Of a stretch of 64,000 nt of DNA, positions 20 through 64,000 are shown one piece after another (the stretch's first letter is position 1; the number at the start of each line of letters is the position of its first letter). The notes under the pieces are model-generated. The model was not told the origin of the DNA. It was given only the letters and a program-made list of their open reading frames with translations, and made no database searches. This stretch comes from Blasia pusilla. Taxonomy: Eukaryota. A program made the position numbers and the translations under genes. The stretch lies in the NCBI GenBank assembly GCA_050084515.1, contig CM114271.1, positions 40,176,001 through 40,240,000 on the forward strand, given 5' to 3'.

Positions 20-2380
20 GAAATGGAGTTTTCATCTACATTGATTGGAATGTTGAAGCGTGAATGGGTTGTGAATCCTTCATCTTACAACTATCCTTGA
101 TGAAGCACCAACTAAAGCTACACCTTATGCATCTCGTACATTTGCAAGAAGAAGATTATATAAGAAGGTTTTTTTTCAGTTTTTCAATGCCCATCCATAA
201 TGAACATTTTAGAAGTAAATGTAATATCTCCATCAATGATGCTATCAAGCTTCTCAAGTATAACATTCCAAATCAATCGTTGTCCATTATTCAAATTCTC
301 CTCTCCTTACCTAGTTTTTTCACATAGCGAATCTATATCATATAGGAGCTCTTTTACTTTCAAATACAAATATTACAATGGAGTATGGGAATCATCTTGG
401 GGCATATACAAGGTTACTAGACTAGATTACTATACTGCTATGTGTTTTGATGCCTAAAGTGACCGTGTTCTGATAGTCCAAGGAGTACTAGGTGGCGTTT
501 GAGCAACTAAAGTTTATGGTTAGCAATGTACAAAATTTGGCAAAAATAACCAAAAATAAAATCTTTTTTTTTGGTAATGAATCATCATAGATAATTCATT
601 ATTTTTGGGGAAATAGCTCATGGCGATGTAATAAAACTTTTGGTTAACGCCATAGAAAATTTCAATCCTATTTATGAAGTGAAAAAAGTAAGAATCTTAG
701 GTCTGTGGAACACGACACAGGGCCTGTAACCAAGACCAATAATATTTGCTATCCAATCCGTCACGGGTAGATCTGGCATTTTAATTCGGGAATCATCTTG
801 ACTTGGCTGATTCAAGGTTTCATGTGGACAAAGTCTGTGTCCGTGGACTTACGTCCGTCCTATGGAAGGACTTGTCCATATAGGTCCCACCTTCCTCTTC
901 TTTCTCTTTCCCCCCACTTGCCTTTGTGTCCCTTTCTGTCATGTTTCTTCTTTTTTCCACCTCCACTTCCTTCCCTCTTATTGCTCCACAGGCCTTGGCC
1001 CAGACATCATAAACTTTAAGTATGGGCCCCATCTCTTGCAATTCGTGTCAGTGGACATGTCCAAACTTGTCCGTTTCTGGATAATTATGGGCATATATGG
1101 GAAATCAAATAGTCTCTTTCGTTGATATGGAAAATGATAATGGACTTTCAATATTGCGATTATCATAATCAAAGCATTAGGGGAAAGATCAAGCATCCCT
1201 ATTTTCTACATGGATCTTGGGATTTATGAAATAAGTCCAATAGAAAAAAGATGAAATAAGAGAAGTACAAAAGGAAACAAGAACATGAATTACCTCATAT
1301 TTTTCATATAAATATCATCTATATATAGGATAAAGAATGACTCCATAGTTCAATAGGTTGAGCATATGTGTTATAAGCCAAAATAACAATGAATAGTTAA
1401 CGAAAGGCACAACCCGTGCGGATTTATGAAGCTTCTTGGAAGCATGAGTAAACTTCTCTATCATCCTCAAGAAGACCCATTTAAATAGTAGCCTCCTTAA
1501 AGGTTAGATATAACATTCCATACATAGTTCTCGAGTATTTGTATGTAGTTACACCTTGAATATGATGAAACAACAATTGAAATTAATGGGGTTCGTATAT
1601 CTACAAAAACTTGAATGTAAATATATAATACAGAAAAAATTGCAAATGGATTTGAATATCCTTGAAAGTGGATTTAATATAGCATAAAATACAAAGAGAT
1701 ATACCTAATAAGTGGCCAATACGTTGACCACAATTGTTTCTTCTTTGGATTTTACGGATCCATTATTTTATTGCTCTAATAATAATAGGAAGGAAAATCC
1801 ACACATAGATATTATCAAGGTAACAAATCGCAACAATTAGTTGCAAACCATTCCATAAGAATTGTCTCCCTTTTTCTTTGTAGAATATATGTTAGAATGT
1901 TGTGATCATCGAAGACTACCAATCTCACAATACTTGAATGTTTTGGATGTAAGTTGAACTTGAAAAGTCTCTAGCATGCCCCAGAAGAAGAGATGTATTT
2001 AAACAAAATACAAGATAATGAGGATAAAGATAAATTATTGTACCATGAAATGTTCTAGAATATCCTCAAATATAGAAGGGAAAAAAGGACAAAAATATGC
2101 ACCTTACATCAAGATAATGTGATGTTTCATCAATAACGTCTATTGTGGTGGAAGGGCCACTAGAAAGTCTATTGGGTTTTTCTAGAAGAGGAAGTCTGGA
2201 AAAAAGAGTGGTGGGTAGAAGTTACGTATAGAAAAAATAAATTCAAGTGTCGAAAACTACCACAAATGCACATCAATAAAGAAGGGAATATCCATACTAT
2301 CATGCACAACCCCACAAATAGAATAAGACAAGATAGCAACCATAACAAGACAAAATAGAAACATGTTCCTATTTTTTTCA
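20..2380 (-). mobile_element. Degenerate Helitron RepHel remnant
   Basis: Segments ~20-420, ~1440-1560 and ~2095-2145 align by eye, in the same orientation, with 30170-30230, 30940-31060 and 31640-31685 of the Helitron in this window (HSRF-IP helicase motif, GLLEDD segment). Many stops; boundaries approximate. Confidence 0.7.
820..1085 (+). repeat. Dispersed ~265-bp repeat (unclassified, MITE-like), copy 1
   Basis: Reverse-complement homologue at ~27915-28180 (shared GGAAGGACTTGTCCATAT.GGTCCCACCTTCC core). The spurious ORFs at both sites share GRTCPY.SHLP. Confidence 0.7.
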
Positions 2381-2427
2381 TGTATTAATTTTGTAACCTA
2401 TTGTGGGTTTGAGAAGAAATAAAAATC

Positions 2428-2762
2428 CTTGGGTAGTAATTATTGTAAGAAGTAGTGAAGTTTAATTTGATTGGTGGGAGTTATATTTATGGGAGAATGG
2501 TTTAGTGGTGATTTTATGTATGTGAGGAGTGGTTTAAAACTTAGTAACAATTATTATAGGAAGTAGTGGGATTTAATTTGATTGGTGGGGGTTACATTTA
2601 TTGTGAAGTGGTTTGGTGGTGATTTTATGTATGTGAAGAGTGGGTTAAAACTTGGGTAATAATTATTATAGGAAGTAGTGGGGTTTCATTTGATTGGTGG
2701 GGATTATATTGATGGGGAAGTGGTTTAGTGGTGATTTTACGTATATGAGAAGTGGGTTAAAA
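2428..2762. repeat. Tandem repeat, 3 x ~111 bp
   Basis: Units start at 2428, 2540 and 2651 (CTT(G)(G/A)GTA..AATTATT...TTTGATTGGTGGG...AGTGG.TTAAAA). Confidence 0.9.
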
Positions 2763-2822
2763 GAATATCCACTCTTTAATTTCTTCATTTTTCCCTAATA
2801 ATTCTTTATAATAATATCTCTT

Positions 2823-2851
2823 GCCGTGCATAGCACGGGCATGCTAACTAG
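2823..2851 (+). mobile_element. Helitron 3' terminus (hairpin + CTAG|T)
   Basis: GCCGTGC-ATA-GCACGGGC hairpin, then CTAG at 2848-2851 followed by T. Same motif as the other Helitron ends in the window. Confidence 0.7.
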
Positions 2852-3385
2852 TATGAAATATTAACAAACGCTAGGGATAGTGTAATGAATGGAGTATTGG
2901 GCCCTTCAACACACCAAATTGTCCTTGGTAACTTGGTGATATCATGAAGTCCAAAATTTACCATCTTGTCAATCATATTATCAACATAAATGTAGAATAA
3001 TTTAGTCAACACATGAACACATAAAATTAGAAATGATCCATGGCATGAATTTAAATAATCTATTCATATTTCTCTAGTATCTAACCAAATTAGGCAAAGC
3101 TCTTTTCTGAAAAATCTTCATCAAGGAAAATATTTTTAAATATTTAATACCTTTTAAATATTTTTTACCCCGCAGTAACTTCTAAAAAATACGGATTATA
3201 ATAGGTTTTAAAAAAGGCTAAAAAAGGGAGTAAGATTAAAAAAAGTGAAAATGAGAGAAGAGATGAGAAATATTTTAAAGTATTAGTGAAGTAGAAAAAA
3301 TAGGGAAAAAAGAAGCAAAAAGAAAGAAGGGGGGGGGGGGGGGGGAAGCCAACATAATACAAGTAAAAACCTATCATCATTGCTA

Positions 3386-8133: not shown

Positions 8134-8869
8134 CCTGCTCCCAACTGGCCACCTGATACCTTCCCAATTCCGACTACTACTCCGAAACTGGCCCAAGCTG
8201 TCTTCAAAAGCTCCCGAAACTGTGATCTTTGCAAGCAGGCGATCGCTTTTTTACCGAGTGATCGAAGATCCCAGTAATGTTCATTCTCCGAAAACGCTCC
8301 CAGCGGTTCTGCTAAATATTGCCAGAGGCGAGCTTGCTCAGGCCCCATGGCGTGGCACCACAAGCGCACGTGGCAGAGACACTAGAACCCAAGTGTCGAA
8401 TGCAGTAGATGTGCACTGTGTTCATGGAGCTTTTCTCTCTTTTGCTCTCTACCTCCCTCGATCGAGCATGCAATGTGTCAAAGTGCCCAGCACTGCCACG
8501 ATTTACACTCGTCTTTTGACACCTCGCTGCTCCTAGGAGTCTGCAGACACAAGGGCTGTCTGAAGGACATGGGAACTTCCATAAACACGCAGTGCACTGG
8601 AGCCTCCATTCGCCGGAGAGCAGGGGCATTACAAGTATCCGCCATCTCTGTGTTTCTGCCCACGTCTTTCATCTTGCCATTCCTATCTCCGATCACTTAC
8701 CTCTCTTCTCGCCATTCCTGTCTCAATCAGGAGGATGTGTGCAAAATCGGGCCACAAATTTCAGTCACAGTTTCAAAATGTGCCGACGATGGCTGACTGG
8801 TTACAGAGTTTTGCAATGTGGAACAGCATGTGGCTTCAAAATGAGAAAGAGTTTTGGGAGGAGGGGGGT

Positions 8870-9272
8870 GAAAAAACTGTTTGGTGGAGAACACTAAGGT
8901 TTGCCGCCATAGCGTTAGATCGCTCGTCATAAGCCTCAATTGTTTTCATCCGAGTGCAAATGATGAGGGATTGCGGTGATTTTCATTCGAGCTTTTCCAC
9001 AGCTGCAAAACTGCAAGCTCCTTCCCATTCCTATCTCCGATCAGTTCACTTCTTACCTCTCACATCCGCTCCGGAACAGATTTTGAAGTCCAATTGTTTT
9101 CATTCAAGTGGAGAGGATTATTCTAAGTCATTCCGGCATCTCCAAAGTTGCAAAAGTGTAACCTTCTTACAATTCCTTTATGGTGTACTCGTTTACCACG
9201 ATCCTCAATAGCTTTCACTCGAGTAGAGATGATTCTGGATTGCATAGAGTTTCAATCACACCGTTTTCAAAC
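8870..9272 (+). repeat. 403-bp direct duplication, copy 1 (copy 2 at 10572-10974)
   Basis: Constant offset of 1702 bp; about 7 substitutions by eye; no TG..CA termini. Confidence 0.95.
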
Positions 9273-10571
9273 TTGCTAAATGCAACCTTCTTCTTGCCAT
9301 TCGTATCTCCCATCACTCCACTTCTTACTGCCATTCTAATCTAAGAACACTGTCATCCCAAAAGTTGAAGTACGTGCGCCCTAACGTTCTTCGCATGGGG
9401 TCCACCAAAGACGGTGTCCATGCACAAAGCCTTCAAACAGAGAACTTGTGGAAGTACTTCATTCAGTCTCCGCTATGACCCCCAAAACACTTTGGAGGCG
9501 CTAGAATGCACAATCGTCCTACACACGTCACCTTCTAGTGACATGTGTTGTTCCCTTTGGGGCCACTTCCTCTTCCATTTCATCATGAGGCACAATCACA
9601 TGTGTGTGCTTCTATGAAAACTAACTCATGTCATGAAATGGAATTTCACATCCTATGATTAGATCGCAATGATCATAATAGAGTTACAAATTTTAACGTC
9701 ATATCAAGACCCATTTTGTCTACATTTGGTCTCGATCTCTCCGTTAGGCGATTGTTGTAGCAAGTTTGTATCTCACATGACAAGCCTCTCAAGATTCATC
9801 GGATTTGCATGCGGTGTGTTGAACCTACCTGTCGCGAGCTTGTGAATCATCTTGGACTACCCCTCGGTATCAAGTTCTTGGCTTGGAAGACCTCCATCAA
9901 CTAGCAAGTTTTCTGTACCATCCATACCACTCAAAATGTGTAACATGTAACAAGGGATACTTCGCTATGGTTAGACGAGGAAGGTTTAGGGTTAGGAAGG
10001 TTAAGAGGGGGGTTGTCACACGTGGACAGAGGAAAGATTCCATCAATAGATTCGAATGATAGTTAACATGATGGTTGGCAACATGGATGGGCATGTGGTG
10101 GTGGATGCATCCTTGACTCATATGTTGGGTCATATGTTGGGCCATCCACTGCAAGCCGCTAGTGTGAGTATTCAATCTTAGAAGTTGGTTATACATGGAA
10201 TATTTTCAGTAGTACTAATTCACATTTCGTAGGAAGACTTGACTGAATGCAAAAACAAGTATGCAATGGAACAGATGATCGAGACATACGTTCGTGAGAA
10301 TATAAGCCATTTTTACCATATTAATTTTCTTCAATCCATGTATTCTACCTTTAGAGTTGGTTTTTGGTATCTTTTGGGTGGTAGTAATTATCATTTTGTT
10401 CATCCAACAAAGTTGGTCCCATTTTAATAGACCAAATGTTGGAGACATAGGAATTTAGAGTTTAGAGATGCATTCATGAGTATTTCATGCATATATCCCG
10501 GCTTTATATATATAATAGTATTGTACATTACCTCAACCTTTCCCTTTACGATAGTTCATACCATATGGAGA

Positions 10572-10974
10572 GAAAAAACTGTTTGGTGGAGAACACTAAG
10601 GTTTGCCGCCATAGCGTTAGGTCGTTCGTCATAAGCCTCAATTGTTTTCATCCGAGTGCAAATGATGAGGGATTGCGGTGATTTTCATTCGAGCTTTTCC
10701 ACAGCTGCAAAACTGCAAGCTCCTTCCCATTCCTATCTCCGATCAGTTCACTTCTTACCTCTCACATCCGCTCCGGAACAGATTTTGAAGTCCAATTGTT
10801 TTCATTCAAGTGGAGAGGATTATTCTAAGTCATTCAGGCATCTCCAAAGTTTCAAAAGTGTAACCTTCTTACAATTCCTTTGTGTTGTACTCGTTTACCA
10901 CGATCCTCAATAGCTTTCACTCGAGTAGAGATGATTCTGGATTGCATAGAGTTTCAATCAGACCGTTTTCAAAC
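10572..10974 (+). repeat. 403-bp direct duplication, copy 2
   Basis: Near-identical to 8870-9272. The duplicated spurious ORFs are 8954-9211 and 10656-10913. Confidence 0.95.
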
Positions 10975-11375
10975 ACCGATGTAGATTCAAGAGTAGAATT
11001 TTAGGCTGGGTGAGCCATTTTTGCTTTGATTTTATATCAGAAAGATGTCATGAGAAAAGCGGGAATTTGTGGTATGCATGTAGGCAAGCGAGTTGCCTCG
11101 GTGGGGAGGCCCCGATTTTGGGTTGATGAGGAACAACATCAGAGTGGGACGACGAGTGTTCGTGAGTTTGTTGCTGAAGGATAAGCTACGAGTGTCAGGA
11201 AGGAGAGGCTATAAGCACTTTAGGTCACACAGCCGTCGTGGGATGATCAAGACGGCTAGCTAGGGGTCTAGGGTTAGGTCATAGACGCACAAGTACTTGT
11301 GCATCTATGACCTAACCCTCGCATAATAGCCGGACAGCGCTGACGCGGGGTTATGATGTCGAGTGGCGCATAAGT

Positions 11376-12109
11376 TATCGTGCGTATACACATCGCTACA
11401 CAACATACATCGTTGTCACCGAACACACACACAAATACACACGATCCCATCTTAACTCATGGCATCCAAACAACGAGACAAGAAGTACCAAAATATCTCC
11501 AATTAAATCAAGATCTATGGTTCTTTCAACACCATAGCTCTCCAATGTGTGCACTCTCACATGTCTCTCTCAATGTCAAACCAAACCCACTCTCCTAATG
11601 AGAGGCTTGGATTACACACACAAGGCAAGCAAGACCATGGCTCCGCCGCCTCATTCCAAGAGGTTCAACAAAGAGAGAATGAGCTCTCAAGCTCTCTCTC
11701 CTTGAGGTATACCCCTCCCCTCTCAAGTCACCTCTTTGGCTCTTGACCTAATGTAAGAGGTCAAGGGCTACTTACCAAAAATATGAATTTGATCATATAC
11801 TCAAAATGGTACTTACCTAAAATAGTAAGTTTCTCAATATGGTTCGAAATGAGCCGAAACGAAGAGCAAACTTGCTCTCTCAGGTTTCGCGGGGCCTTAG
11901 CAGGTCATCCTTGATCTTCTGAGCCTATCCTCCACTACTTGCAAAGGTGCTCTACTCGATCTCACCGATCTATCCTAAAAGACATGATAGCTATCGTGCG
12001 CATATACATCGCTACTCAACATACATCGCTGTCACCAAACACACATACGATCCCATGCTAACTCATGGCATCCAAACAACAAGAAAAGAACTACCAAAAT
12101 ATCTCCAAT
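11376..12109 (-). repeat. 3' terminal repeat block B1-A2-B2 (B2 11376-11503, A2 11504-11989, B1 11992-12109)
   Basis: 11376-11503 matches 11992-12109, and 11504-11989 matches 20881-21366. The same arrangement recurs at 60797-61559. Confidence 0.9.
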
Positions 12110-12289
12110 CGCCCCCTACCTGGTGATTAGGTCCCTCTAACTCCACATAGCCATCTATCCCTACCTACTATGACATACATCTCTCGGACGCTACAAGTAA
12201 GAAGTCCGGATGCTCATGTGGCTCCATCGTTACTCGCCTTCTTGTCATCCATGTCCCAGACACAAGTCGAAATGTAGAACTACCTATTC

Positions 12290-13600
12290 TATGTACATCT
12301 GGGACACATCCATCATCCCTGAGGAACCCTAGTGAGAGGTGGCGTCAAGCATGCCATATGCCATCCTCTCGAACATCCATCACAGACTAGCATAATGGCT
12401 GCACCACGAGCACAACCACCCAACATATATCGCAAGCCTGTAAGAACTACTGCCAAGCTCGGATCAACTGTACCCTCAATGTTTGGAAGGTGATATGGCG
12501 CATAGTTAGGCACATGGTCCTTCCAAACCATACCATCGCGTCCCTCCAATAAGAGAACAACTGATGGAAAAACCTCACGCACTCTCAAGATGGTGTGCCC
12601 TGCAGTCACATCCAACGTCGTGGGTGTCGTCTGCTACAAGTAGACATAGTCTCCCTCATGAAACCTCCGGATAGTAGGTCGATAACCACTCCCCCTAATA
12701 GTTGTATACATCAATGTATCCCAATGTTGCGCAATTGCCAAGTTCTCAAACGCCATGGGCATCACTCTCCGGAACAACTCAACCCTCTATGAACATAATC
12801 TCATCCATACATCAGGGTCATCAAGGTTCAACACCTCACCAACATCTCGACAAATGGCCGTAGGAAACTTTAGCTCACGGCCATAAAGCAGCAAGTACGG
12901 TGAGAAAGACGCTAAGGATGCCTGCCTTTTGAATCTGTATCCCATCGCCAACCATGGCAACTGAAGGTCCCAATCTCCTCGGTGAAATCTCTACAAGCCA
13001 TACTTGCGCAATCCTCTCTTCATCGTGTGTACAACCCTCTCCGCTGATCCATCTGCCTCAAGATATCTCACGAAGTGGTGCGGTGGTCAATCAGTGCCTG
13101 ATCACACAAGGCTTGAAACTCCTCGCCAAACTCAATACCTTGATCTGTCAACACCTCAGTTGGTGCACCGTAATGACTCAGCACTCGATCAAGGAAGGCA
13201 TATACTACTCCCTCACTCACTTTTTGAGGCTATGCAACCAACTCTATCCAATTCGAGAAGTGCTCGACCATCACCAACACATAACGACTATTGCGCTCCA
13301 TCAAAGGCAAAGGTCCTCGAAAATCCAAACTCCATCTATAACCTATACCCATGATCGGGAGTGGATGCAACTGTGGAATCAGAACATTAAACAATGCTCG
13401 AACTTGATCATACACCATGCATCTGGCAACAAACTGTTGAATGTCAGTTTGTATGTCTCACCACCAATATTGAATCTCAAGCAAACTATACGTCTACTTC
13501 ACTCCAAAATGACTTGACTCCTCTTGGGCATGATGCACCAAATGTGCTCATTGCCAAGGATGAGGCACAACATGCACTCTACCATCCTCCCACACTCACA
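12290..13600 (-). pseudogene. DDE integrase with C-terminal PHD finger (element 1)
   Basis: ORF fragments 13230-13418 and 12313-12615. PHD reads ...[31 protein letters not shown]. Confidence 0.9.
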
Positions 13601-13637
13601 ACTCATGTGTCCCCTCCCACCGAAACCGTTTGGCTCG

Positions 13638-14990
13638 CTATAGGATCCGATCCCGCTCTCTAGCACCCACTATGCTCGCGATGCTGCCAGTACGCAGATA
13701 CTCCAAGACCACTCCATCGCCGTGAATATCTCGACCACCTGACGTCTCCTCACCGGCCTCTAGATCTAAGGACTCTCCATCAGACATCGCCATGGAAGCC
13801 TTAGCAATCTGGCTCTCCATAGCCAACAAGCCCAAATAGGCTGAAGAATGCCATCCTGGCACCAACTCCTCATCACTCTCACAATACCAACGAGCTTCAG
13901 TCACATCTCGCAGACTCGAGCATGGGTTACGGCTCAAACCAACTGCATCATGGTTGAGCGTCCTTGGTCTATGCACCACCTGGAAGTCATACTCGTGCAA
14001 CAAAAGATCCCACTTGGCAAGCTTCCCTGTAAGCTTGTGGGACTCCATTAACCACTTAAGTGGCTGATGATTTGTAATGATGGTAAAGGGATTGCCGAAT
14101 AGATAACACCTGAAATGTGCGAGTGCCCACACCGCAGCCAAGCACTCACCCTCATACGAGCTATACTTTGCCTTTGCAGCGATGTTTGAGCGACTTGCGT
14201 AAGCCACCACAAACTCTCTACCATCATTGTCATGTTGGGTGAGCACGGCTCCAAGCCCCAACATGCTCCAATCGACTCACATCTGTTGGGCATGTAATGC
14301 AGGAAATAGCCTCTACCTTTGTCTACTGCACACTAAGGCCCCCTAGATATATCGTTTGACCCAGGTACGCAATCTGGTCGTAGAAGAAATTGCACTTGTC
14401 TGGATGTAGCTTTAGCCCATGTAACAACAATCGTCGAAACACCTCCTCTAGATGTCGCTCATGCTCCTCAATTGTGGCGCTTAAGACTACGACGTCATCA
14501 ATATAACACCTACCAAAATCCAAATGTGCGAAGATCCTATCCTAAACCCTCTAAGACTCAACTAGGGCATTCTTTAACCCAAATGGTAAGAACCGCCACT
14601 AGTACAAACAATCCTTCCCGTGAGGATCGATGCCCCAAAATTCTATCTGCCGCCTATCCCCCAATTTGATAGGCATGTGATGGTATCCGGCTCGCAAATC
14701 CAATGAACTGAAGACCTTTGCATGCCCAATCGCATCAAAGATCTCCTCAGGGATGGGCATGGCATACCTACACTAAATCAGAGCCCTCTCCATGTTACTA
14801 TACCTATAGGGTCGTAGGAAGATTGCGTGTCACTCAACAACTCAATGCGGATCCCTTGACCCTTCACCATACCCAAATCTTTCATGCTAAATGCAAAAAA
14901 ACTCCTATAACTCCTCAAGAACTGATGTATGCGGCGCCGCTCTCCTCCTATCATCTTAGGGCCCATATCTGGCTCCCAAGTCTCCATCGT
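13638..14990 (-). pseudogene. Reverse transcriptase and RNase H (element 1)
   Basis: CYIDDVVV, LKLHPDKC, GLGAVL, VAYASR and YEGECLA, with stops and frameshifts. Part of the RT/RH connection appears deleted relative to element 2. Confidence 0.9.
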
Positions 14991-15339
14991 GACTATCGTA
15001 GGACTCTCTGGAGTAGGTGTAGATGGTTGCTATGGTGCAACCCCGTCTCCTACAATCAAACTCGAGTGCTCTCCTATATCCAAGTGCAAACTCTCATCTC
15101 CACGTGCACTACCCGGAACCACGCTCGATGCCATGGCTATCATCTCCTAAAGTACTTGCAAAACATCCCAATAAGTCCAAGGGTATCTCTCACGATCATC
15201 CTTGATGTGTTGATCTCCTCGAGTCTCGCCCCCAGCCACTGCCTCAACCGTCTCGGTAGGCATGGAGCTCACCAACGCAACAACTATGATATGTGGCATC
15301 CTCAAACAACGTTGCTCAACTACTCCTAAGCTGAAAATC

Positions 15340-16245
15340 CATGTCAAGCAGTTCACGTCCATCTCCTGACCCAGGACATGACGTCATAGTCAATACTCTG
15401 ATAGTGACAGTATTGTTGTCACTCCTATAGGGAATCACATCACTCGCTCTCGCTCATCGATGTTGGGCTCCACCAACCTCTGTACCTAGTCATCCCAAAC
15501 CAAGCCAGGTCCGGCCTCCTTGAAAGGCTGCTTGTGGCATGCGAATCCTGTTGACCACAGTCAACGGCGGTCGATCATCTTGCCTCACTGCCTATGATCG
15601 GAGACCTGGATCCAGAATGGAATCCACCAACAAATCAGAGGGGCGCTCCACTCTCGCATACGCCCTTCGCATAACCTCATCTGGCACCAAGTTGGTCCAC
15701 CAAAGACGCAGGCAGTGTGCTCTAGAACCTACACTCGCCGCATCCAAAAACACTTCCGAGCCCATCCATGCGTGCACTTGATGTACACTCGTCACCACGC
15801 GGGACCTCAAATCGCCCAAAATCAGCACATTCTCCAAAATGTATGCTAGAGAACGAGAATGATGCTCCTGCAAGTATCACAAAAATCCGCATCATCTCTG
15901 AAAACAACCTGGACCGAGTGTCACCTAACCCGGTATCCCGTCCAACACTCGACTGGCCCTGACATGGCCAATCAGCAATGACCAGATCTATGGTCCATAC
16001 CCACTCAAAGTCCTGCGGCCCCAACAATGAAATGTCCCTCGGAAGGGAACTCCAGTAATGAATGGCAGACGTAGAAAACAAGTCGAGAAAACATAGGCAT
16101 AAATGTGTCACATGGTGACGTGAAGCGCGCCTTGCAATATCATCAATCTCCACATACAGGTATTGTTGCACGCGCACTCCAGCCTGCAAAACAACAGCTA
16201 ACCAAGTGCTGATCCCTCTAAAGAGACCCAACACCCGAATATCCT
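15340..16245 (-). pseudogene. DNMT3-like C5 cytosine DNA methyltransferase catalytic domain inside the retrotransposon pol region
   Basis: Motifs in canonical order: I RVLGLFRGI, II YVEID, IV DLVIADWPCQG, VI YILENV, VIII DAASVGSRAHCLRLWWTNL, IX ERERVM*FPIG.T, X RHVLGQEMD. One frameshift near 15880 and a few stops. Confidence 0.9.
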
Positions 16246-16844
16246 CTTCTAGGATGCACCACATAATCCGGGTGGTGTCCAAAGGGTTCATTGCAGCACT
16301 CATGGCTACCTGGGGTTCCTCGGACCCGTCACACTCTGATGCAAACGTCTCACTCCACGCGGTCTACACATGCTCAGTGGCTAAGCGTCAAAGTTTCTCA
16401 GTCGAGCCCCAAAGTGGCATCTCTCCTCCACGGACTGATGCGGCTACCATGACACTGCTCTCCATAGAAATGTCAGGAACAGGAGTATCCTTTGCATGGA
16501 CATGTCCCTCAATCAAATCACTAGGCCAAGTGATGGCATTGCTAAATGTTGCTAAGGTCGCCATCTCTCATGGCCGTCGCTCGATCACTGGACCTGTGAA
16601 TCTAACGATTAATAAGTTAAGGGCCCATCACTTGACTGCCATCCTGGTCTGTAGGAAGTTGACTCCTCCCAATAATCCAAGAAAAACCCCATCAGATATA
16701 ACACTGCTCCACCAACCAAGACGTCATAGGACTCTGAATCAATCACTATCGCCTTGGCTCGCACCACGGACTTATCTGTAGGATGTCCCAGGCGAATCCT
16801 TACCATGACCTCATGTCGGGTGATATATTGTGTGGTACTCGCTC

Positions 16845-17000
16845 AACGAGAATTAATTATTGGAGATAGATAGACAGACAAGTAAAACAGCAATAGCCAT
16901 TGATACTATTTTGAATCAAAAAGGTCAAAATGTAATATGTGTTTATGTAGCTATTGGTCAAAAACCTTCTTCTGTAGCTCAAGTAGTTAATACGTTTGAA
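16845..17000 (+). pseudogene. atpA: Nuclear plastid DNA (NUPT): fragment of chloroplast ATP synthase CF1 alpha
   Basis: AT-rich insert translating [51 protein letters not shown] (Walker A region). A 4-bp TAGA duplication shifts the frame. Confidence 0.95.
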
Positions 17001-20000
17001 CATCCAAAGATGTCTGTATCCGGAATGGACAATGCTCCATATCGGCTCTCGTCAAGCCCAATCCTCTGAATGTCGCTTTCCCCAATATGAGGGGTTGCGC
17101 TCCTAAATCCAACACAACACGCTGCAGACTAAAAGCTCTACCTCCGGGACTCACCAATTGGAAGACCTCTCCCCCGTTATCCAGCAACACAATACTAGGA
17201 GAAGCCATGGCACGCTCTATCGCACGACTAGTGGGCATCTCCGCCATCCTAGCAGCCGCAGCTTGACATGAATCTGACGTGGACGGCCCGAGCATCCGCT
17301 CTAAGGGTAGGTCCATCACCTCCTCTGCAATCACCTTTGAATGTGATGCATGAACTCCAACTCCACGCTCACGTAGCATAGCGACCAGCCGAAATACCTC
17401 GGCAGGCGTACCTCCCAATGTCATAACATCGGAAAATATCGGAGCACGGTACACCATCGTGGTTGCCCCCAACATCGTACTCGATACATACTTCTCCTAA
17501 GCATCAGCAATATGAGTCGTCACACTCATTTCTCCCATTGCCTCATTATGCCTGCACACCAATAACATAACCAACTCTTTGGGAACTCTGATCAGGATCC
17601 ATCGATGGGGTCCTCATCGCCTCGGACAACGTGAAAGATTGAGGAAGACCGGTCTATTTCCTGGCTTTCCCTCGCTATGGATCCAACTCTACGGCTGCTC
17701 CACATATCATAATTGCGGCAGCCTCTATCTGGGCAACCTTGCACATCCAACCAGGATCCTCCATATCTCTAGCTCCTCCATATGATGTCGATGCCACGGA
17801 TCCAGCATCGGGTAAACTCAATGCCATAGCGGCAATCTGCTCCTGTAGCTGCTGTATCTTAGCATCCATCCCAGCCTCATGCCCGGCATCTCCCTCGACG
17901 CGTCTAGGTGGTGGGACTCTACCTCCTCCACATGCAACTTCACCACCCTGTCAGGTAATTCCAACTCCTCGTTTCCCAACGAGACAACATGGTGCACGAC
18001 CTCTAGGCCCACTCGGACCGGCTACTCACTCTGATGCCCTCTCTGGCCCTCGGTCCGGACGTAACTCAGTGTGTAAACTAAAACACCTGATGCATGTGTG
18101 ACCATACCTCTGATAATAGTCACACTAATAACCTCTTAGTGTAGCACTATCTCCTCCTTCATGCTGAGGCACACGTCCATGACCCTCACGAGTGCAATCA
18201 CGTTGATCATGGGCTCCACTACATGACCAACAAGTAATCGTAGGCGGCTGTTGTTGAGCCGCATATGAAGAAGCAGGTCTCTATGTAATGGTCTCCCGGT
18301 ATCCTCCCTAAGCTCGTGGTGCCACAATCAACCTATCTAGGAGTCCACGTTGCTGCAGTGGTGATGCAGGCAATCGTGACTGCTCTCGCCCAGAACCCAT
18401 GGTGGCTACGCTCTCCTCCACCATGTTGTGCTCAATATTCTTGGCGGTCCTAAAAACATCTCTAAACGTAGGTGAGGTGTTCATAAGAAGTATCCCCTCC
18501 CCCACCCGTGTCCGCAGGGTCCGATCAAGCATCGCATATCATGATTGGATAGCATGAGCCTCTGTCAACCCCTGAGTGACGTTGATCAATCGACGCAAGA
18601 AAGTGTAAGCCTCATGCAATCTCTCACTCGGGCGCCTCTAGAAGTCATGGATGCTCCACAATTTCTCCGTCCATACCCTCTGGTAGCTCGCCCTCAACTC
18701 AGCGAAGAACTCAACCACGAGGTTGCACCTAGGACGAACTCGACTGGACGGTGCAACTACTCCAGTGTGAGTTACCCCTCCTAAAATATCACGTGCGGAA
18801 GAGGAAGTAGCCTCTCCTGACTCTTCCTCCTCATCTGGGAACGGCTCCGTCCATGACACATAGTGTGGGTCATACTAGAGTGGCCATGCCTCAATCTCTT
18901 GGGCATATCTGTGGGAGAACTCATGGTAATCGTCCATGGGCGCCCCCTCTAAATGCTGGAACATACCGTTCCATGTTGTAAACTAGTTGAACTCTCTAGA
19001 GTTCCTAGCCTGTTGTGAGTCGCGCCAACTCCTAAACTCGATGATGAAGTCGTGCAACTCTATCGTACCTACTGCACCTGAGAACCTACGCGGTCTTCTA
19101 CCATGGTCGTCCATCTCGTACGCCCAAGCAATAGGACTACTCAATATGAGTGGCAAAGCACTAAATTCCTCTACGCCCTCCTCCTCATTTGAAGATGACA
19201 TAGAAGGATGTCGAGGTGGTCCCGCATGTGGATACCCTCGAAACCTCGCGCCACTCCACGTAAATCCTCTAGAGCTACGCTCTAGGATTCCGTGATGACC
19301 CTTGTTCCCCTCTCACACAATCACTCTCAACCTTGCGTGTAATCACGCAATCACTCAATCTAACATACGGCACTCAAGCTACACTCTCTCATCAAGACGT
19401 GTGTTGTGCGGTAACAAGCAGCGTGATGCTGCAAATCAACTGATATATAGTCTCATCGATAAACCATCCTCAACTCTGGACATCCCACACAAGTCTTTGT
19501 TCCCTCAACCCATTTGTCATCTATGCTCTCAGCGTCAGCACGAAACCCAATATCCCAAATAACTTCCCAATACCCGGAATTCCCTCACACTTGCACGGTA
19601 AGAGACCAGAATGGGTAACCTGACAATAATGTCAATGTCGCTCCTTGGCAACTGTAAATCTCGACCCCAACTCGGTCGTGCAGATAACTCCTCCAATAAG
19701 CAAGTTGTAATCTTGTACTGACGTTGCTCAAACCTCCTAAATATTTAGTGCAAATCCAATGGTACGGTGCGACATTGGCGACACGGAACGGCACTCGATA
19801 ATGGGATGCAGCACTCCACGGCATACCCTCCTCAATCAGCAATACACATGCTCTGCTCCTTAGTGAAGGAGCGGCTCCGCGATCGAGACAATACGGTGCG
19901 TCCACAAGCAGCACGACGCGGCAATCGGCGGCGCATTGTAGCTACGCACGTCACGACACGGTACTCGATCGTCCTTGAGTGGCTACCAATCACAACATAG

Positions 20001-20880
20001 CAGAATGAAATGAAAACTCAAACACCGTGACCCAAGGTCGCCTGCCATCATTGGTTGATCACGAAATTGCGATGATGGTGGCATCCAAAACAAAGTATGT
20101 GGTGGTGGCGCAAGTTAGAGAATCAACGGTCATCGTGGAAGACCCTCCACTCCGTAATGGTGGCAATGGCAACCAAGGGTGGACAACGGCCGAACGTAGC
20201 TCTCAGTAGCGCTAGGCGGCGGCGGCCGACGGTGGCCCGTGGACCATTGACGATGACGACGGACCGTTGATGGTGACGGTTGACCGTTGACGATGACTAT
20301 GACCGCAACAGCTGCCGCCGCTGCCACTGATTTAGGGTTTGAACAATTTTACCATACAAATCGCCTTGCAATAAAAATTTTGCAAGATTGACCATAAAAT
20401 TTTGCTCGCAACTATAAATTATGCACTATTTGTTGCACAATGTGCACAGGTTTATGATCTACGACGATGTCAAAAAATATTTTGAATCGTACATTCGAGT
20501 AAAAACTGACGGGGACTGTCGTAAAGCCCAATGTCTCTTTCTCCTACACAAAATTTGGCAGCGCTTCCGCGCTGTGCACTGATTTCTCCCAAAAAAATTG
20601 TAAAACGTGTGAAAATACAAATCAACAAGCTACATGGTGCTCCCGAGAGCACCATGTAGGGGAAATTGGCTCCCATACTCAATCCCTATCAAAAATTGGA
20701 CAGCGCTTCCGCACGCCACTCTTTCACACGAAAAATCGGCAAAGGAAACATAAGCTCTCCAGCTCTGGTGAGCACTCCCATGAACCATTGAATGGGGAAT
20801 ACGATCCCCAACCTGCAAAACCAGTGAGTGACCAGCGAGCTCCCCCATGAAACTCTCTCACTCATCTCATTCTCTCTTTG

Positions 20881-21366
20881 TAAATCAAGATCCAAACTCT
20901 CTCAACACCATAGCTCTCAATGTGTGCACTCTCACATGTCTCTCTGAATATCAAACCAAACCCACTCTCCTAATGAGAGGCTTGGATTACACACAAGGCA
21001 AGCAAGACCATGGCTCCGCCGCCTCATGCCAAGAGGTTCAACAAAAAGAGAATGAGCTCTCAAGCTCTCTCTCCTTAAGGTATACCCCTCACCTCTTCCA
21101 AGCTCTCTCCATGGTAACCTATGCTCCCAAGTCACCTCTTTGGCTCTTGACCTGATATAAGAGGTCAAGGGCCATTTACCAAAAATAGAAAGTCGACCAT
21201 ATATTCAAAATAATACTTCCCTAAAATAGTAAGTTTCTCAATATGACTCCAAATGAGCCGAAACGAAGGGGTCTCAACAAGCTATCCCCGACCTCCTTAG
21301 TCTGTCCTCCACTACTCGCAAAGGCACTCAACTAGATCTCACCGATCTATCCTAAAAGACGTGACA
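20881..21366 (-). repeat. 5' terminal repeat A1 of element 1
   Basis: Matches 11504-11989 and ~60925-61442; ends GACGTGACA on the + strand; has no B segment. Confidence 0.9.
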
Positions 21367-28702: not shown

Positions 28703-31700
28703 CTAGTAAGTGCCCGTGTGATGCACGCGGGAAGTAAGGTAGTATAGAGTGAAGATACATTTTATCAAATTTATTTCATCTCAATATTTCTTTATATACT
28801 ACATTTCATGTGTAGTCACCTTCCTTATTTGAATGTTCATCCCTTCCAATGGTAATGTGGATGGAACTTCTCTTTCCTACTCTAGATAATGCTACATACA
28901 ATTAACCATGAGAAAATACATACGTAGGCAAGTAAATGCCAACCTTTTGCAAAGTTTGACTTTTCGACTTATTAATAGTCATTAAAAAAGCCGGTCTAAC
29001 AGGGAATTGAAACCTCCACAAATCAAATGGCAAACCAGAATCTGATACAATCAATGGAGTAGGTGGAAAAAAAATGCGATCTCCAATATTCTTCCCAGTG
29101 ATAATTTCAGCATCGATGCAATGTCTCATAGATCTACGAATCATCAATCTGGTCTCGTTTGCTTGTCCATGTGACCCATTCATGTTTCGTAAGAGTATGA
29201 TTGGTGCACCAATCTTCAAACACAAATGATGCGGAGGAAGTCTAGAAGGCAAGCATGTGTTTAAGAACTCAGTTTGGTAGATATGACTCATTCAGTATTT
29301 GGAATAGAGTCGACGATTACATAAATATGCTCCTGTACACAATATGTAATGAGTTAGTGAGAAAAGGAAATATTAGTATCCAAACTTCCAAAAAATATAT
29401 TGATAGAAGTACAAATGAGATAAGTCTAAAGGATTACCTCTCCGAGGAACCAAGACATAACGTCTGCATTTATGTCGTCAACATCTTTATTTCTTAGAGT
29501 CAAAATAGTTTTATCTCTTAAGAAATCAATGTCATGGAATCGGCTAAGAAAATTGCCATAGATCAAATCAATAAGATCACATATTTTGTTACTATTAGTA
29601 ACAATTTCAGATGGCAATCGTATAAAGTCTTATCCTAAATGAGGGTGTTAAAGTACACGACCCTCTCCCACTTCCAATAACCAATAAGCAAAAGCTTGTT
29701 GTTCATCATGCAAATGACCATCCAACCTTTGAACTCTCATGTTTATTTTCAACTTCATGACCCTTACATTAGACCAAAGAGATGATTTCTTTATGGTGGC
29801 TTGGATGATTTGCGGCCAATCCCCATGACGAACAACATGCAACACTTGACGAAAATCACCACCAAATACCATAAGTTTTCCACCATACGGTAATTATCGT
29901 AAATAATCCGAAACAACTCTCATGATATCCTGTAAGGTTTGATTCACGGCCTCAAAGGCATGACGATGAACCATAGGTGCCTTGTCCCATATAATGAGCA
30001 TCACCTCAAGGATTAAGTGCGCTCCATCACTATCGACCAATAAACTACCAACAAAAAGGGAAGAAAATTAAAAGCTAATTTTTTTTGAGTAATTAAAAAA
30101 ACTTTTGGAATATTAACAAAATTGAAGCTAATTAAGAAACTTATGGTACTAACTTGCAATTAGAGCTTTCATGAAGATTAATGGGGATCTTGAAGCGCGA
30201 ATGAGCAATACGTCCTCCGTCTGACAATAGGGCAACTATACTAGATGATGCTACAGCCAAAGTTATATCTCTAACTCTCCTTACACTTGCAAGAAGAAGA
30301 TTATATATATAAAAAAAAATTCCAGTTCCATCTGGACCATCGATGAGAAAAACTTTTGGAGATGGTGGAGCATTCGCACATATTTGATCAAGCTCATCAT
30401 GTATAACGTCCCATATCATGCGTTGTCCGTTGTTTAGACACGCTTCTCCCAATTGCACTTGCTCAAATAATTCTTCCATGTCATATGATAGCTCTTGTTC
30501 CTCCAAATATGAGTGTGAATGAAGGATTTCAAAATTAGCTTGGAGCATGTCTGGGAAGTCAGATAGTCTCTTTCCTTGATCTTGTAAATAATAATGGGCT
30601 CTCAATAATGCTGTACTAATGATAGCATCACCAACAGCAAGATTAGGAATTCTTATTTTCTGTAATGGAAGAGTTCCAAAAAAGGTCAAAATTATGGTTA
30701 GTATGTTGGACTCTTAATATAAGGGAGATGGAAAACGTTACTACTATTAAGAATAACGTTTTTTTGTAAGAGTTATAGCATTGGATTCTTTCTTGACGTC
30801 GTTCATATAAGAGATCTTCAACCAACGGAACCAAGAATTGACTCCATGATATTGCAGGTTGAGCAGGTGTGTTTTAAGCTAGAATAATTGCAAAGAGACG
30901 GCGTAGTGAAAAACCCGTACAGATTATGGAAGCTTCTTCAATGCAAGTAAACACCTCCCTATCATCCTCAAGAAGTCCTAATTGGATCGCAGCCTCCTTG
31001 AATGTTGGACATAATATCCCATGAACCGTTCTCAAGAATTCGTATGTAGTTGCTCCTCGAATATTATAGAGGAGTAATCTCAGCCAATGTCGTTCTCCTT
31101 CACCTATGACAAAGTGAGAAAAATGAGCTCATCTATCTATATATAAAAGAAAATGGGTGAGGCTGGTATATTAAAAAAAATGTATATAAAGAATTTTTAA
31201 GTTTTTACCTGGATGAGTAAGGTATAAGCGGCCAATGGGATGGCCACAATTATTGAATTTTTTCACCCTATGAATCCATCTCTTGTTACTCCAACGATAA
31301 TATGAAGGAAAATCTATATATAGATATTGTCGAGCAGTGGAGTCAAATAGATTGGGTGCAGACCATTGGGTAAGAGTTGTCTCTCTCTTTATTTGCAAAA
31401 TATTTTGAGGAGCGTCAACATCATTGAAGTAGAATATTTGTTGCTCCGGAAGATGAACTGCTAATCTCACGATACTTCGAAGTTCAACATGTAGAGAAAA
31501 TTTGAAGAGACACCACCATGCTTATGAACAAGATATATATCTGGAAAAATAAAAATTCCAAGTATTCAAATTAGGAGAATGAACATGATGGATAAGAAAT
31601 AGAATGGAATGCATCACATCAATGAAGTAGCGGAATCATACCTCAAATCAAGATATGATGTTGTCTCATCAATAACGTCAATTGCATTGGATGTATCTGT

Positions 31701-34700
31701 ATCCTTTGACAACTTAAATGACACCGCATCAGACGCCTTATACACCTATTTGTATAAGTACTTGACCGCAAAAACACTACTTGTGATTTCAAGATTAATG
31801 TGACAATTGAAGAGGGTGCATAACATAGGATTGTAGAGCACAACCCAACGATTATCCAATGAATGTTGGCTCTTAATTATTGCCCTCCCATTCTCCGATC
31901 TACAAAAACATAATAAAAAATCATGAATATGCTTTCCAATACTTCAATGACATCATATGTCTTACAATAATAAAGATAAGCCAAAATTAGAGGATCCTTA
32001 CCTACGATATATCGTATAGCCATCTTCCGTCTCTATAATGTTGGCCGCAAAAGCCTTAGGATAGCCTTTGGTGCACTTTTTGGTTTCCTTATCCATACAT
32101 AGTGCATTTGGATTTAATGGTCCACATGGCCCATGAACCATGCAATTAGTAACAGTAGAATACAACCTTGGATGGGTAGATTGATCAGGGATTTCTGGTG
32201 AAATAATATGATCATAATCATGAGTGGTACGTGGTTTATCCTCCCGTCCTAATATACTAAGAATGTGCACATGCGGCAAACCTCTTTTTTGGAATTCCAC
32301 CACATGGATGCATCCTGCAACTCGTCCCAATATGTGCTTCTTGATGATAAGCCTTAATAACTCTTTCCTTTTCTTCTAAAAAACCCGTACGACCAAATCT
32401 GATCGATCCGCAACTGATTGACCAGGTAATAAGGCTGATGTAATCTCCTCCCACTTTGGATTGCATGTCATAGTCAAAAAGTAGTCCGGCTTCCCCAAAT
32501 GTCTTACAAATGCCATTGCATCTTGATACAATTGATGCATGTGACGCGACCCTCCCGTGAAAGAAGAAGGTAATATAATGCGCCTCCCAACCCTCCGACT
32601 ATACACATCATGTCGATGCATGGCATCCTTTACACCTTGATATAATCTAGCCCTTAACTCCTTTTGATTCAAGCGAACCCATGATGATCGTTGCATCTTT
32701 ATAGTTGCATAGAGGTCAACCATATATTTTTGAGTAAGTCGACCAAACGGCAATAAGCGATTGTCATCTTCGCCTCCAATCTGCGTTTGAAGTCGAAAAC
32801 ATGCAAATTGCAAGGCCGTAACACTCTTTGTTTTTCTTTCCTAAAAAATGTCACCATCAACTCTTTCCTCATCCATCCAATCTTCTAAAGGTTCCACGTG
32901 TCCCTCCTCATGAATAATCCAACCCAATCGTTGGGATTCTCGATGACCTTCAATCCTCTCGAAGGGTATTCCAAGATGCCAACATGCTTCACCATAGATA
33001 AATAGTAGAACAAAATATAGTGAAATATATGCTTCATTAAGGTTTGATATACGCTTCACTCCTCCTCCATGCAATCTTATAATTATATCCCAGTGGTCAA
33101 CATGTTCACTGCCATCACCCGACAATATAGCCGCAACCTCAGAAGCAATTGGTAAATTATAACGCTTAGCCTCGAGACCTCTCTTACTTGCCTCGAGGAT
33201 GATCCGCATATTGAGATCAGTTGTTTCATATGCCATATGACAAAAGATCTTCATATATGGGTTGCATTCATATAACATGTCTTGTAGCCCTATCAAAATA
33301 TCTATATTAAGATTAGACGATCTAGACATAACTCTTTCACGATTCTCCAATTCATTTGCGCTATCATGGATGTAGAGTTGAGCAAATTGGGGATGAACCC
33401 CCATATCAAGATGTAAGGATCCAATAGAATGTTAAATCCCACCTTGGACCCTAAAGTGTTCAGTGCCACCTATTTGTTCATTTACGTGCATTCCAATAGA
33501 TGCAAGTTGAAGCGCATAATTGTAAGCTTTAGTATGTGTAAGAAAATGAAGACTTCTAGGACCAATACCTGAAATCAAGGATTTCAGGAATGGAGGAGAC
33601 AATTTCAAGAGGGGTAAATGTATTCTCCCATGGCCATAACACATGCCATATGGTGAGTAACTAATCTTTAAGCCTTCACCCTTTCACATTTCCAATGTAA
33701 AGCATGACATGATGGACATATCTCTGTCATATAATCCAATGTATGACGACCGCTAACACAATTCAAACTCCTATGTGATCTCAACTACTTAATATCATTT
33801 TCTTGGAAATTTGGTTTGCTTGCAAGATTCAATAATGTATTTAATCTTACAACCCTATCAACAACATACAACAGAGGAATCCTGTAAGCATTTGGTTTAA
33901 TGACACTTTCTCGAGATAACACAACTCCATTAATGGTAGAAGACAAAGGATCTACTCTTGACCTTGCTTCATCCTCGTAATGGGGAAGAGTCAAAGAATT
34001 CTCAACAACTTCATGTTGAAACAGAATCGGAAGAGTGATATGTAACTCAACTTTTGGTATCACATAAGTAATTGGCCTTGTCGTAGATATATTCTCGATA
34101 ACTTCATGGAGTGCACTATCACATAACTCTCGTCATGGTGATGCATGTATCCGATCTGTAGATGGAAGATGAACTTCTTGATTTTCTCCTACCATTCCTC
34201 CATCCTCATTAAAAGGCTTGAGAAAACATCAATATATTACATAATACATACAAATAAAAAATGAACAATCAAAGATTTTCAGCGAGGATATAAAAAGTTA
34301 GATATGTACCTTATGGATTGACTACCAATAGCCATAAGCTCCTCATTTGGAGTAGTTGGAATACTTTGAACTACGATCGTAGTCTCAACTTGACCATGAA
34401 GCGCTTTCCTTCTTTTTCTATACTCTTGATAATAACACCTCTTTTTTTCTTTCAAGGCTTCCATTTTGTCAACACGAATAGCACGTTTTCGTTTTTGGGC
34501 CTCGCCGCGTAGAACCTTTCGAAAATCACGTACATCCATAGGATTCAATGGAATGGGAAGTCTAAAATAATACAGACATGTTAAGAGCAATGCACTGACT
34601 TAAATTAAAAGGGAAGATTGTGAAGGTTGGAAATGTGGACATGCTAAATGATTGTCAATTTTGTGAATTTACGTTGGATATGTTTTGGGAAGGAATTCAT

Positions 34701-63700: not shown

Positions 63701-64000
63701 CTCCAAGCCCCAAAATGCTCCAATCGGTATGCAACTGGAAAGGACGCCCCCTGATCGGTCTCCTCAATATGGGCACGGGCGTCAATCTATCCTTGAGCAT
63801 CTGAAATGCTCTCTCATGCTTATCCTCCCAGTGCCACTCATGATCCACCTTGGTCAGCAAGGTCAGTGGTTTCACAATCGAGCTGAAACCCTTGACGTAC
63901 CGTCGATAGAAGTTGGCCAATCCCATGAATATACGAACTCGACTCACATTTGTAGGGCGTAGAATGCGTGAAATAGCCTCTACCTTCGTCTGCTACATCC
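60797..64000 (-). mobile_element. Second copy of the Gypsy family (3' part: RT end-RH-IN-PHD plus B1-A2-B2 repeats); continues beyond the window
   Basis: ORFs 63363-63947 (FMGLANFYRRYV, LHTDWS, RNase H), 62583-62780 and 61740-62561 (integrase + PHD). Repeats B2 60797-~60924, A2 ~60925-61442, B1 61445-61559. Confidence 0.93.

Follow-up and report, generated by a model that had tools for sequence, protein, structure and literature searches.

A dead Gypsy retrotransposon copy in Blasia pusilla belongs to an abundant, transcribed family with a DNMT3-like methyltransferase domain

We analyzed a 64,000-nucleotide stretch of the Blasia pusilla genome (contig CM114271.1, positions 40,176,001 to 40,240,000; hereafter the window), which contains a decayed Ty3/gypsy-type retrotransposon carrying a DNMT3-like C5 cytosine methyltransferase domain (DNMT). 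Read along the minus strand, the element consists of a terminal repeat A, a gag-like region with a CCHC motif, protease (PR), DNMT, an in-frame UAG, reverse transcriptase (RT), RNase H (RH), integrase (IN) with a PHD finger, a repeat B, and second copies of A and B (Table 1). A preliminary description based on the letters of the sequence had proposed a Gypsy element with a methyltransferase between protease and RT. Pfam matches to RVT_1, RT_RNaseH, Integrase_H2C2 and rve, together with tblastn homology, confirmed the Gypsy assignment: PR, RT, RNase H and IN lie on one strand and the integrase is of the DDE type, as expected for Ty3/gypsy. Three collinear tblastn pieces and mapping of the domains onto the Marchantia polymorpha protein P0003 placed DNMT between protease and RT.

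Six methyltransferase motifs were located on the minus strand in the order I (16205-16231), IV (PCQ, 15956-15973), VI (ENV, 15826-15843), VIII (15691-15726), IX (15417-15455) and X (15357-15383), consistent with the unpermuted order initially described. A search with Pfam PF00145, suggested as a check at that stage, was positive for the open reading frame (ORF) 15722-16363(-), with 24.9 bits against a cut-off of 22 (E 1.7e-5); intact relatives scored 34-58 bits. When positions 11900-19500 of the minus strand were translated in three frames with stops read as X, the long frame remained under the cut-off (20.4 bits, E 3.9e-4), and the other two domain fragments gave no Pfam match when submitted singly. 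We then used a family profile of 380 positions derived from 11 relatives. Read through with X at the breaks, the domain scored 342 bits on this profile, and since the match spans positions 3-379, the whole domain is present though broken. All of the 62 related proteins compared by tblastn aligned as collinear pieces at 16573-15881, 15876-15523 and 15524-15129, each in a different frame.

Two frame slips separate these pieces. At the joint of slip 2, hundreds of host genomic reads have additional letters, and slip 2 is therefore a private deletion of letters which those reads retain. Five in-frame stops lie within the domain and three more in the linker upstream. Furthermore, a G of motif I is replaced by R, and C takes the place of the leading R, an invariant residue, in the A-H-R-x-R core of motif VIII. 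With two frame slips, five stops and these two substitutions, the copy has no open frame able to yield an enzyme. The window copy is a long-dead pseudogene which makes no product, an ordinary dead insertion. An Atlas look-up of the domain returned generic C5-methylase clusters only.

The domain had been likened to DNMT3 and set apart from DRM and from MET1/CMT. PDB matches, Foldseek comparison and motif order all agreed with this assignment. With an intact Marchantia relative as query, 27 PDB sequences were matched, 25 of them DNMT3A/B/C. The 11-member profile matched 57, the first 29 of which were DNMT3A/B/C (best 9.7e-25, 90 bits). Six DRM chains ranked after DNMT3, followed by bacterial enzymes and DNMT2; DNMT1, MET1 and CMT chains were absent from the 57 matches. 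The DRM chains aligned with profile positions 18-152 only, through their C-terminal part (chain positions ~225-351), as expected of a circularly permuted domain; such permutation is not found in the window motifs. In a profile search of 5.8 billion proteins, fish DNMT3B provided the only named cellular matches. An AlphaFold model of the domain (pLDDT 84.3, pTM 0.86) was compared with solved structures by Foldseek, and 34/34 listed rows were DNMT3A/B/C (E ~1e-18), with TM-scores (target) of 0.77-0.84 to isolated DNMT3 catalytic domains. Profile matches and predicted fold thus support the view that the domain is DNMT3-like.

In order to place the element among its relatives, we collected proteins by several routes. 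The broken ORF as query returned eight proteins, seven from Marchantia polymorpha and one from Calypogeia fissa. The intact domain as query returned 60, Sphagnum fallax among them, and an exhaustive profile search gave 590 cluster representatives at E <=1e-30. Name look-ups added Hariotina reticulata, Scenedesmus sp., Haematococcus lacustris and Klebsormidium nitens GAQ93235.1; this last protein was not returned by the profile search and word search, and was found by the exhaustive search and the name look-up. A scan of metagenome contigs identified 80 loci, the nearest sharing ~70% DNA identity with the window. The annotation of Marchantia polymorpha includes open gag-PR-DNMT gene models 1248 and 1278 residues long. 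One Marchantia protein (P0007, Mp_6g11220) has lost the motif IV P-C-Q by a short deletion, and its DNMT runs into the start of RT without a stop. A public database entry assigns a fragment of the family's integrase-PHD region (P0062) to a Spirochaetia metagenome bin, most likely through a binning error.

Two domain orders were observed among these relatives. In the first, gag(CCHC)-protease-DNMT precedes RT-RH-IN-PHD; this PR-DNMT type comprises the window element, Marchantia, Calypogeia, Sphagnum, K. nitens and environmental loci. K. nitens GAQ93235.1 contains zf-CCHC, Asp_protease_2 and DNA_methylase in order, and scored 316 bits on the family profile. In the second, RT-RH-DNMT-IN-PHD occupies one frame; this RH-DNMT-IN type was found in Scenedesmus and in 4/4 tested environmental ORFs of 1833-2182 residues, in one of which DNMT was visible by tblastn only. 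Examples of the second type are loci L027, L036, L040 and L046 and proteins P0067 and P0140. The two orders indicate that the domain changed position within one Gypsy lineage. In a maximum-likelihood (ML) tree of the domain, the window fell in a nine-row clade with three bryophytes (support 100/100), with an environmental clade as neighbor. The idea of a land-plant instance, raised in the preliminary description, is thus substantiated by relatives in two liverworts and a moss and by the position of the window within their clade.

Invariant across 11 sequences of 30-75% identity are C-Q in motif IV, E-N in motif VI and R-x-R in motif VIII. The ratio of nonsynonymous to synonymous substitution (dN/dS) among copies of intact relatives, a measurement proposed at the outset, was 0.01-0.16: within the PR-DNMT type, three pairs gave 0.16, 0.13 and 0.11, and a single pair of the other type gave 0.014. 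Saturation of synonymous sites was seen in several more pairs, where pN was ~0.08. Intact members elsewhere keep the methyltransferase under purifying selection.

To evaluate the family in its host, public host reads were placed on positions 12100-20900 at a likeness of at least 80%, using a sample of ~1% of the whole-genome run. A total of 149,754 genomic reads were placed, 123,642 of them less than 90% alike. Only 140 were at least 99% alike, and the window copy is therefore old and divergent. If this copy gives at most 140 reads, the family amounts to roughly a thousand copy-equivalents. Summed genomic depth was 1360-1800 in three DNMT bins, 1296-2368 over gag/protease and 2149-3342 from RT to integrase. 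Since depth over DNMT is near that over gag/protease (~0.6-0.8 of it), the domain is present in most copies and is a feature of the family, not a one-off capture. The earlier concern that most other copies might lack the domain is answered in this way by read depth over the domain instead of a copy census.

The element is represented in RNA as well, with 5677, 5829 and 6209 reads in three runs. First mates on the plus strand outnumbered those on the minus strand by ~10:1 or more in most bins, and the reads therefore represent sense RNA of the element, assuming the usual stranded library. RNA depth rose ~5-fold along the element, from ~20-50 over gag to ~140-240 over integrase. We conclude that the family is abundant and transcribed in the host. 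Separately, RNA reads were seen to join across 701 (14168-14870) and 155 bases (13993-14149) in the RT/RNase H region, with 38 and 30 RNA reads versus 0 and 1 DNA reads and ends that are not sense GT..AG; these joins probably represent expressed deletion derivatives, not introns.

The junction between DNMT and RT was compared across related loci. In two loci (L018 and L015), the gag-PR-DNMT frame stops at a TAG and a 1047-residue RT-RH-IN frame starts from the next codon in the same frame; in two others (L020 and L010), DNMT frames terminate at the same TAG site with RT in frame, so that all four open-frame loci share this arrangement. The boundary was located in 24 loci and reads TAG-CAA/CAG in 17, TAA-CAA in three and differently in four. 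The first codon after the stop is CAR in 20/24 loci and in the window, and the full TAG-CAR-YYA was found in 5 of the 17 TAG-CAR loci as well as in the window, where TAG-CAA-CCA is in frame with the last DNMT piece and the RT ORF. The site is absent from all 18 other loci examined. Gene calls of 12 relatives (nine ORF1 and three from the bryophyte clade, including two from Marchantia) end 48-112 residues past the domain. In tobacco mosaic virus and other plant viruses, efficient readthrough has the consensus UAG-CAR-YYA (PMC3159437). Since the UAG is conserved in a viral readthrough context, we infer that RT-RH-IN is made by readthrough, which would leave the methyltransferase in the abundant upstream product. 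The domain had been placed on the pol strand, between protease and RT. It does lie there, but it belongs to the gag-PR ORF, with the conserved UAG before RT.

The ends of the element differ from a plain two-LTR (long terminal repeat) pattern: each end has a repeat A, and the 3′ copy is flanked by an additional repeat B. The resulting DIRS-like layout, A-coding-B-A-B, was found in the window element and in the 3/3 related loci with both ends (L024, L041 and L026), with A of ~340-480 nt and B of ~115-130 nt. The second copy of the family in the window has the same 3′ end, and the likeness between the two copies ends at the end of B2. B1 resembles B2 as closely as A1 resembles A2, and B2 therefore seems to be made anew with every transposition. 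No clear target-site duplication of the plain-LTR kind was seen by eye at the window element. Among the RH-DNMT-IN loci, no terminal repeats were found in 4/5 and the fifth has a repeat at contig ends only; L018 and L015 gave no terminal repeat pair.

At the integrase C-terminus, Pfam returned no chromodomain and a PHD finger was found instead. The best solved relatives of the PHD finger of the second copy are those of CHD4, KDM5, PHF12, KAT6A/DPF3, PHF21A, ATXR5, AIRE and UHRF1. Most such PHD fingers read histone H3 tails unmethylated at K4. By analogy, this would suggest that the PHD-integrase steers insertion to silent chromatin.

The remaining features of the element are compiled in Table 1. 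Pfam gave no match on the two gag ORFs or on the protease ORFs of the window, and the protease was assigned by homology: Asp_protease_2 occupies the corresponding place in relatives, and the expected D-S/T-G reads D-L-G at 17098-17112. The integrase region contains 10 stops. Within the protease region, 781 host genomic reads join 16844 to 17004 and skip the 159-bp insert, which is therefore private to the window copy or to a small subfamily. The ATP synthase fragment in this insert looks organelle-derived and lies on the strand opposite to the element. The second family copy runs off the end of the window in RNase H, before the DNMT region; its integrase/PHD ORF of 280 residues is better kept, and the identity given in Table 1 extends over 2.9 kb.

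Table 1. Features of the element and of the second family copy, numbered from the first letter of the window
Feature	Position	Strand	Evidence
Ty3/gypsy-type element, ~10 kb	11373-21364	-	Pfam, tblastn, repeat matches
5′ terminal repeat A1, LTR-like, TG/CG start	20881-21364	-	Matches 11504-11987
gag-like region, CCHC-like knuckle, 11 in-frame stops	17594-19093	-	tblastn to Marchantia P0003 residues 11-490, 40% identity
Protease-like region, split by private 159-bp insert	16615-17484	-	tblastn to P0003 residues 514-672 and 682-751
159-bp insert with ATP synthase alpha/beta fragment	16845-17003	+	Pfam ATP-synt_ab E 7.6e-8 on ORF 16857-17069(+)
DNMT3-like C5 cytosine methyltransferase domain, motifs I-X unpermuted, pseudogene	15340-16245	-	Pfam, tblastn, profile, motif positions
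Frame slip 1, between motifs IV and VI	15877-15880	-	tblastn pieces end at 15881 and start at 15876, frames differ
Frame slip 2, ~11 codons deleted relative to most copies	15522-15524	-	tblastn gap at P0003 residues 1120-1132
In-frame TAG followed by CAA CCA, between gag-PR-DNMT and RT	15024-15032	-	Sequence; same site in related loci
Reverse transcriptase, 5 stops	14269-15029	-	Pfam RVT_1 at 14350-14739, E 6.5e-21; YIDD at 14494-14505
RNase H, 2 stops	13599-14285	-	Pfam RT_RNaseH at 13989-14285, E 5.8e-29
Integrase: H2C2 13404-13535, rve core 13074-13340	13071-13535	-	Pfam E 2.6e-8 and 6.9e-11
PHD finger, integrase C-terminus	12295-12399	-	Pfam PHD E 8.2e-8 (three-frame translation), 7.4e-6 (ORF)
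Repeat B1, with purine run in front (polypurine tract-like)	11989-12109	-	83% identity to 11373-11503
3′ terminal repeat A2	11504-11987	-	BLAST and MAFFT versus A1
Repeat B2, 3′ end of element	11373-11503	-	Likeness of the two window copies stops at the end of B2
Second family copy (B2-A2-B1, PHD, integrase, RNase H)	60801-64000	-	85% identity to 11380-14274

Most lesions had been described as C>T or G>A changes. This holds as a tendency. At 1359 places at least 20% of genomic reads differ from the window copy; the copy has A/T and the reads G/C at 617 of these, the reverse is true at 304, and three of the five domain stops face R or Q in relatives. The other 438 places are transversions. Repeats A1 and A2 are 79% identical by BLAST over 515 columns including gaps and 89.8% by MAFFT over 453 aligned positions, the latter with 36 transitions and 10 transversions, and the two window copies differ by 269 transitions and 128 transversions. 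The window copy has thus decayed mainly by transitions. CpG depletion fails to single out the element, because its observed/expected ratio (0.72) is not lower than that of the whole window (0.65).

Elsewhere in the window, the long ORFs derive from transposons or encode a low-complexity coiled coil. Helitron remains at 30141-33431(-) consist of separate broken ORFs matching Helitron_like_N (E 2.9e-39) and a PIF1-like helicase (E 4.6e-17). A 1003-residue open frame at 52826-55837(+) is E/K-rich and coiled-coil-like, matches no Pfam family convincingly, and lies within sequence with a GC skew of +0.34 and an AT skew of +0.26. Adjoining the element, two 300-nt direct repeats (8865-9164 and 10567-10866) are 98% identical and 1.7 kb apart, and may be a small young LTR pair.

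Taken together, these results lead us to the following reading, to which we assign a probability of roughly 0.85. The window element is a dead copy of a streptophyte Gypsy-DNMT3 element whose family is abundant and transcribed in the host. In live copies, the enzyme would be produced as the C-terminal part of a Gag-PR-DNMT polyprotein, and so in excess over RT-IN, which would be made only upon ribosomal readthrough of the leaky-type UAG. The enzyme would methylate cytosines de novo, most plausibly those of the element's own cDNA or new insertion, and the PHD-integrase would steer insertion to chromatin with unmodified histone H3 tails. Several observations weigh against parts of this reading. 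The DNMT3 assignment is based on solved animal structures and fish DNMT3B, and the tree, built without plant DNMT3, DRM, MET1 or CMT, has fish DNMT3B as its only outgroup. On this tree the K. nitens row sits on a long branch without a resolved place; a topology test did not reject a single clade of K. nitens and all PR-DNMT rows (p-AU 0.56). In the host, DNMT depth is under RT-IN depth; the domain may be missing from some copies or related families, or more diverged reads may be drawn to RT-IN. Of 2303 variant places, the 40 listed all lie outside the DNMT region and have no bearing on whether the host keeps an intact copy. As to the enzyme, P of motif IV is replaced by E in some relatives, and no methylation was obtained with the K. 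nitens domain in yeast, a result its authors call inconclusive (PMC5890265). Finally, readthrough is deduced from conservation and context, and most bryophyte-clade loci read CAA-CCC and not the strict YYA.

This last point favors a plain gene end, with RT-RH-IN expressed through splicing, reinitiation or a second transcript. Three loci with TAA also fit such an end, and the ~5-fold rise in RNA depth from gag to integrase could reflect shorter 3′ transcripts. Yet the stop is in frame with both ORFs in all four open-frame loci, is followed by CAR in 20 of 24 loci and the window, and has the full tobamovirus motif in five loci and the window, so that we consider a plain gene end unlikely, although it is the strongest of the rivals. 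We give less credit still to the proposal that the domain is selected for something other than DNA methylation, acting on RNA or as a DNA-binding or multimerizing module of the Gag-PR polyprotein. The negative yeast result for the K. nitens domain, called inconclusive, and the E-C-Q of some members would suit this proposal, as would the RNA methylation that the same study raises for a LINE-borne DNMT (PMC5890265). Against it, the catalytic Cys, E-N and R-x-R are invariant, dN/dS is low, the predicted fold superposes on DNMT3 catalytic domains, and a related DIRS-borne Dnmt3 is reported there to methylate CG in yeast (PMC5890265).

Two further explanations appear very improbable. A host DNMT3 fragment that this single copy had captured, or that had nested within it, would make the element a chimera, and indeed only one window copy covers the region, the second ending before it. 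Such a nested or chimeric origin is rejected by the read depth, which is thousands-fold over the domain in the host, and by the relatives, since the same position is filled in Marchantia, Calypogeia, Sphagnum, Klebsormidium and dozens of environmental loci. It is just as hard to believe that the Marchantia-type proteins are domesticated host genes and the window a pseudogene of one. The Marchantia chromosome annotation does list them as ordinary hypothetical proteins, but each genome has many paralogues, which are fused with or sit next to gag, PR, RT and IN and have terminal repeats on either side, and copy number in the window's host is very high.

With the streptophyte Gypsy-DNMT3 reading retained, a broader scenario can be outlined, one we regard as tentative and, taken as a whole, doubtful. 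An ancient Gypsy family of the green lineage, from chlorophytes to bryophytes, would carry a working DNMT3-type enzyme; in streptophytes the domain would have moved to the Gag-PR ORF upstream of a leaky UAG; and the methyltransferase, packaged in Gag-like amounts, would methylate cDNA before PHD-guided insertion into H3K4-unmethylated chromatin. If true, transposon-encoded de novo methylation could contribute to a land plant methylome, given the approximately one thousand transcribed copies and the open Marchantia models. Marchantia polymorpha is a genetically tractable model plant, and with these open models one could test in a land plant what a transposon gains by carrying a silencing enzyme. 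Expression level, targeting and evolutionary history can be approached through the conserved UAG context, the PHD-integrase and the chlorophyte domain order.

How does the element compare with known systems? De Mendoza et al. 2018 described Dnmt3 domains in a K. nitens Gypsy element and in Symbiodinium DIRS elements (PMC5890265). KnitGypsy-Dnmt3 is likewise a Gypsy element with an unpermuted Dnmt3-type domain in its polyprotein, and K. nitens GAQ93235.1 has the CCHC-protease-DNMT order of the window. According to the legend of Fig. 4c, its repeats are DIRS-like, as is A-coding-B-A-B here, and the published Ka/Ks of <0.2 compares with our dN/dS of 0.01-0.16 (PMC5890265). It differs in having few copies in K. 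nitens (PMC5890265), against far more in the window's host, whose copies cluster with liverworts and a moss while the K. nitens branch is long. Domain order and repeat layout indicate that the window element belongs to the kind of KnitGypsy-Dnmt3, and its tree position makes it a member from the land-plant clade; the novelty presumed in the preliminary description is lower to that extent. In the main text and legends of PMC5890265 the words protease and PHD are absent (a readthrough stop was not searched for there), and its main text mentions neither Marchantia nor liverworts. Two later texts, as far as consulted, speak of Gypsy-DNMT3 or of retrotransposons bearing DNMT3 "in streptophytes" but name no land plants. 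Our literature search found no named bryophyte or other land-plant case, nor any of six Marchantia gene identifiers, in texts excluding the supplementary tables, which may list some.

SymbioDIRS-Dnmt3 of dinoflagellates shares a retrotransposon-borne Dnmt3-type domain and A-coding-B-A-B repeats (PMC5890265). It has a DIRS tyrosine recombinase in place of the DDE integrase of the window, and its CG activity was shown in yeast (PMC5890265); that of the window lineage is putative. Animal DNMT3A/3B/3C are the closest solved enzymes by profile and fold, with the same motif order and a short VIII-IX interval. They differ in sequence (~20-26% identity) and in context, as the element's domain is part of a polyprotein without PWWP and ADD, whose sole histone-reader-like module is the PHD finger on integrase. 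Plant DRM enzymes are distant relatives, six chains of which match the profile, but they are circularly permuted and the window motifs are not. Chromoviruses and 'EpiLTRs' are also Gypsy-type elements with chromatin modules added to pol (bioRxiv 10.64898/2026.05.21.726589); chromoviruses have a chromodomain where the window element has a PHD finger, and the EpiLTR DNMT is reported to be sister to DNMT4 and located at the 3′ end of pol (bioRxiv 10.64898/2026.05.21.726589). The leaky UAG of tobamoviruses shares the hexanucleotide context after an in-frame UAG that splits an upstream product from the polymerase (PMC3159437); here it would operate in a retrotransposon, after protease and DNMT, as judged from sequence, and many relatives have CAA-CCC. 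The chlorophyte relatives (Scenedesmus sp. 'pol' KAF8056149.1, Hariotina reticulata and Haematococcus lacustris) and environmental contigs carry a homologous DNMT (33-43% identity), Gypsy RT/RH/IN and an integrase PHD finger, but their order is RT-RH-DNMT-IN-PHD within a single long open frame that lacks a stop ahead of RT. Relative to the literature examined, what is new is the extension of the range to land plants, the high copy number together with transcription, the leaky-type stop, the PHD-integrase and this chlorophyte domain order.

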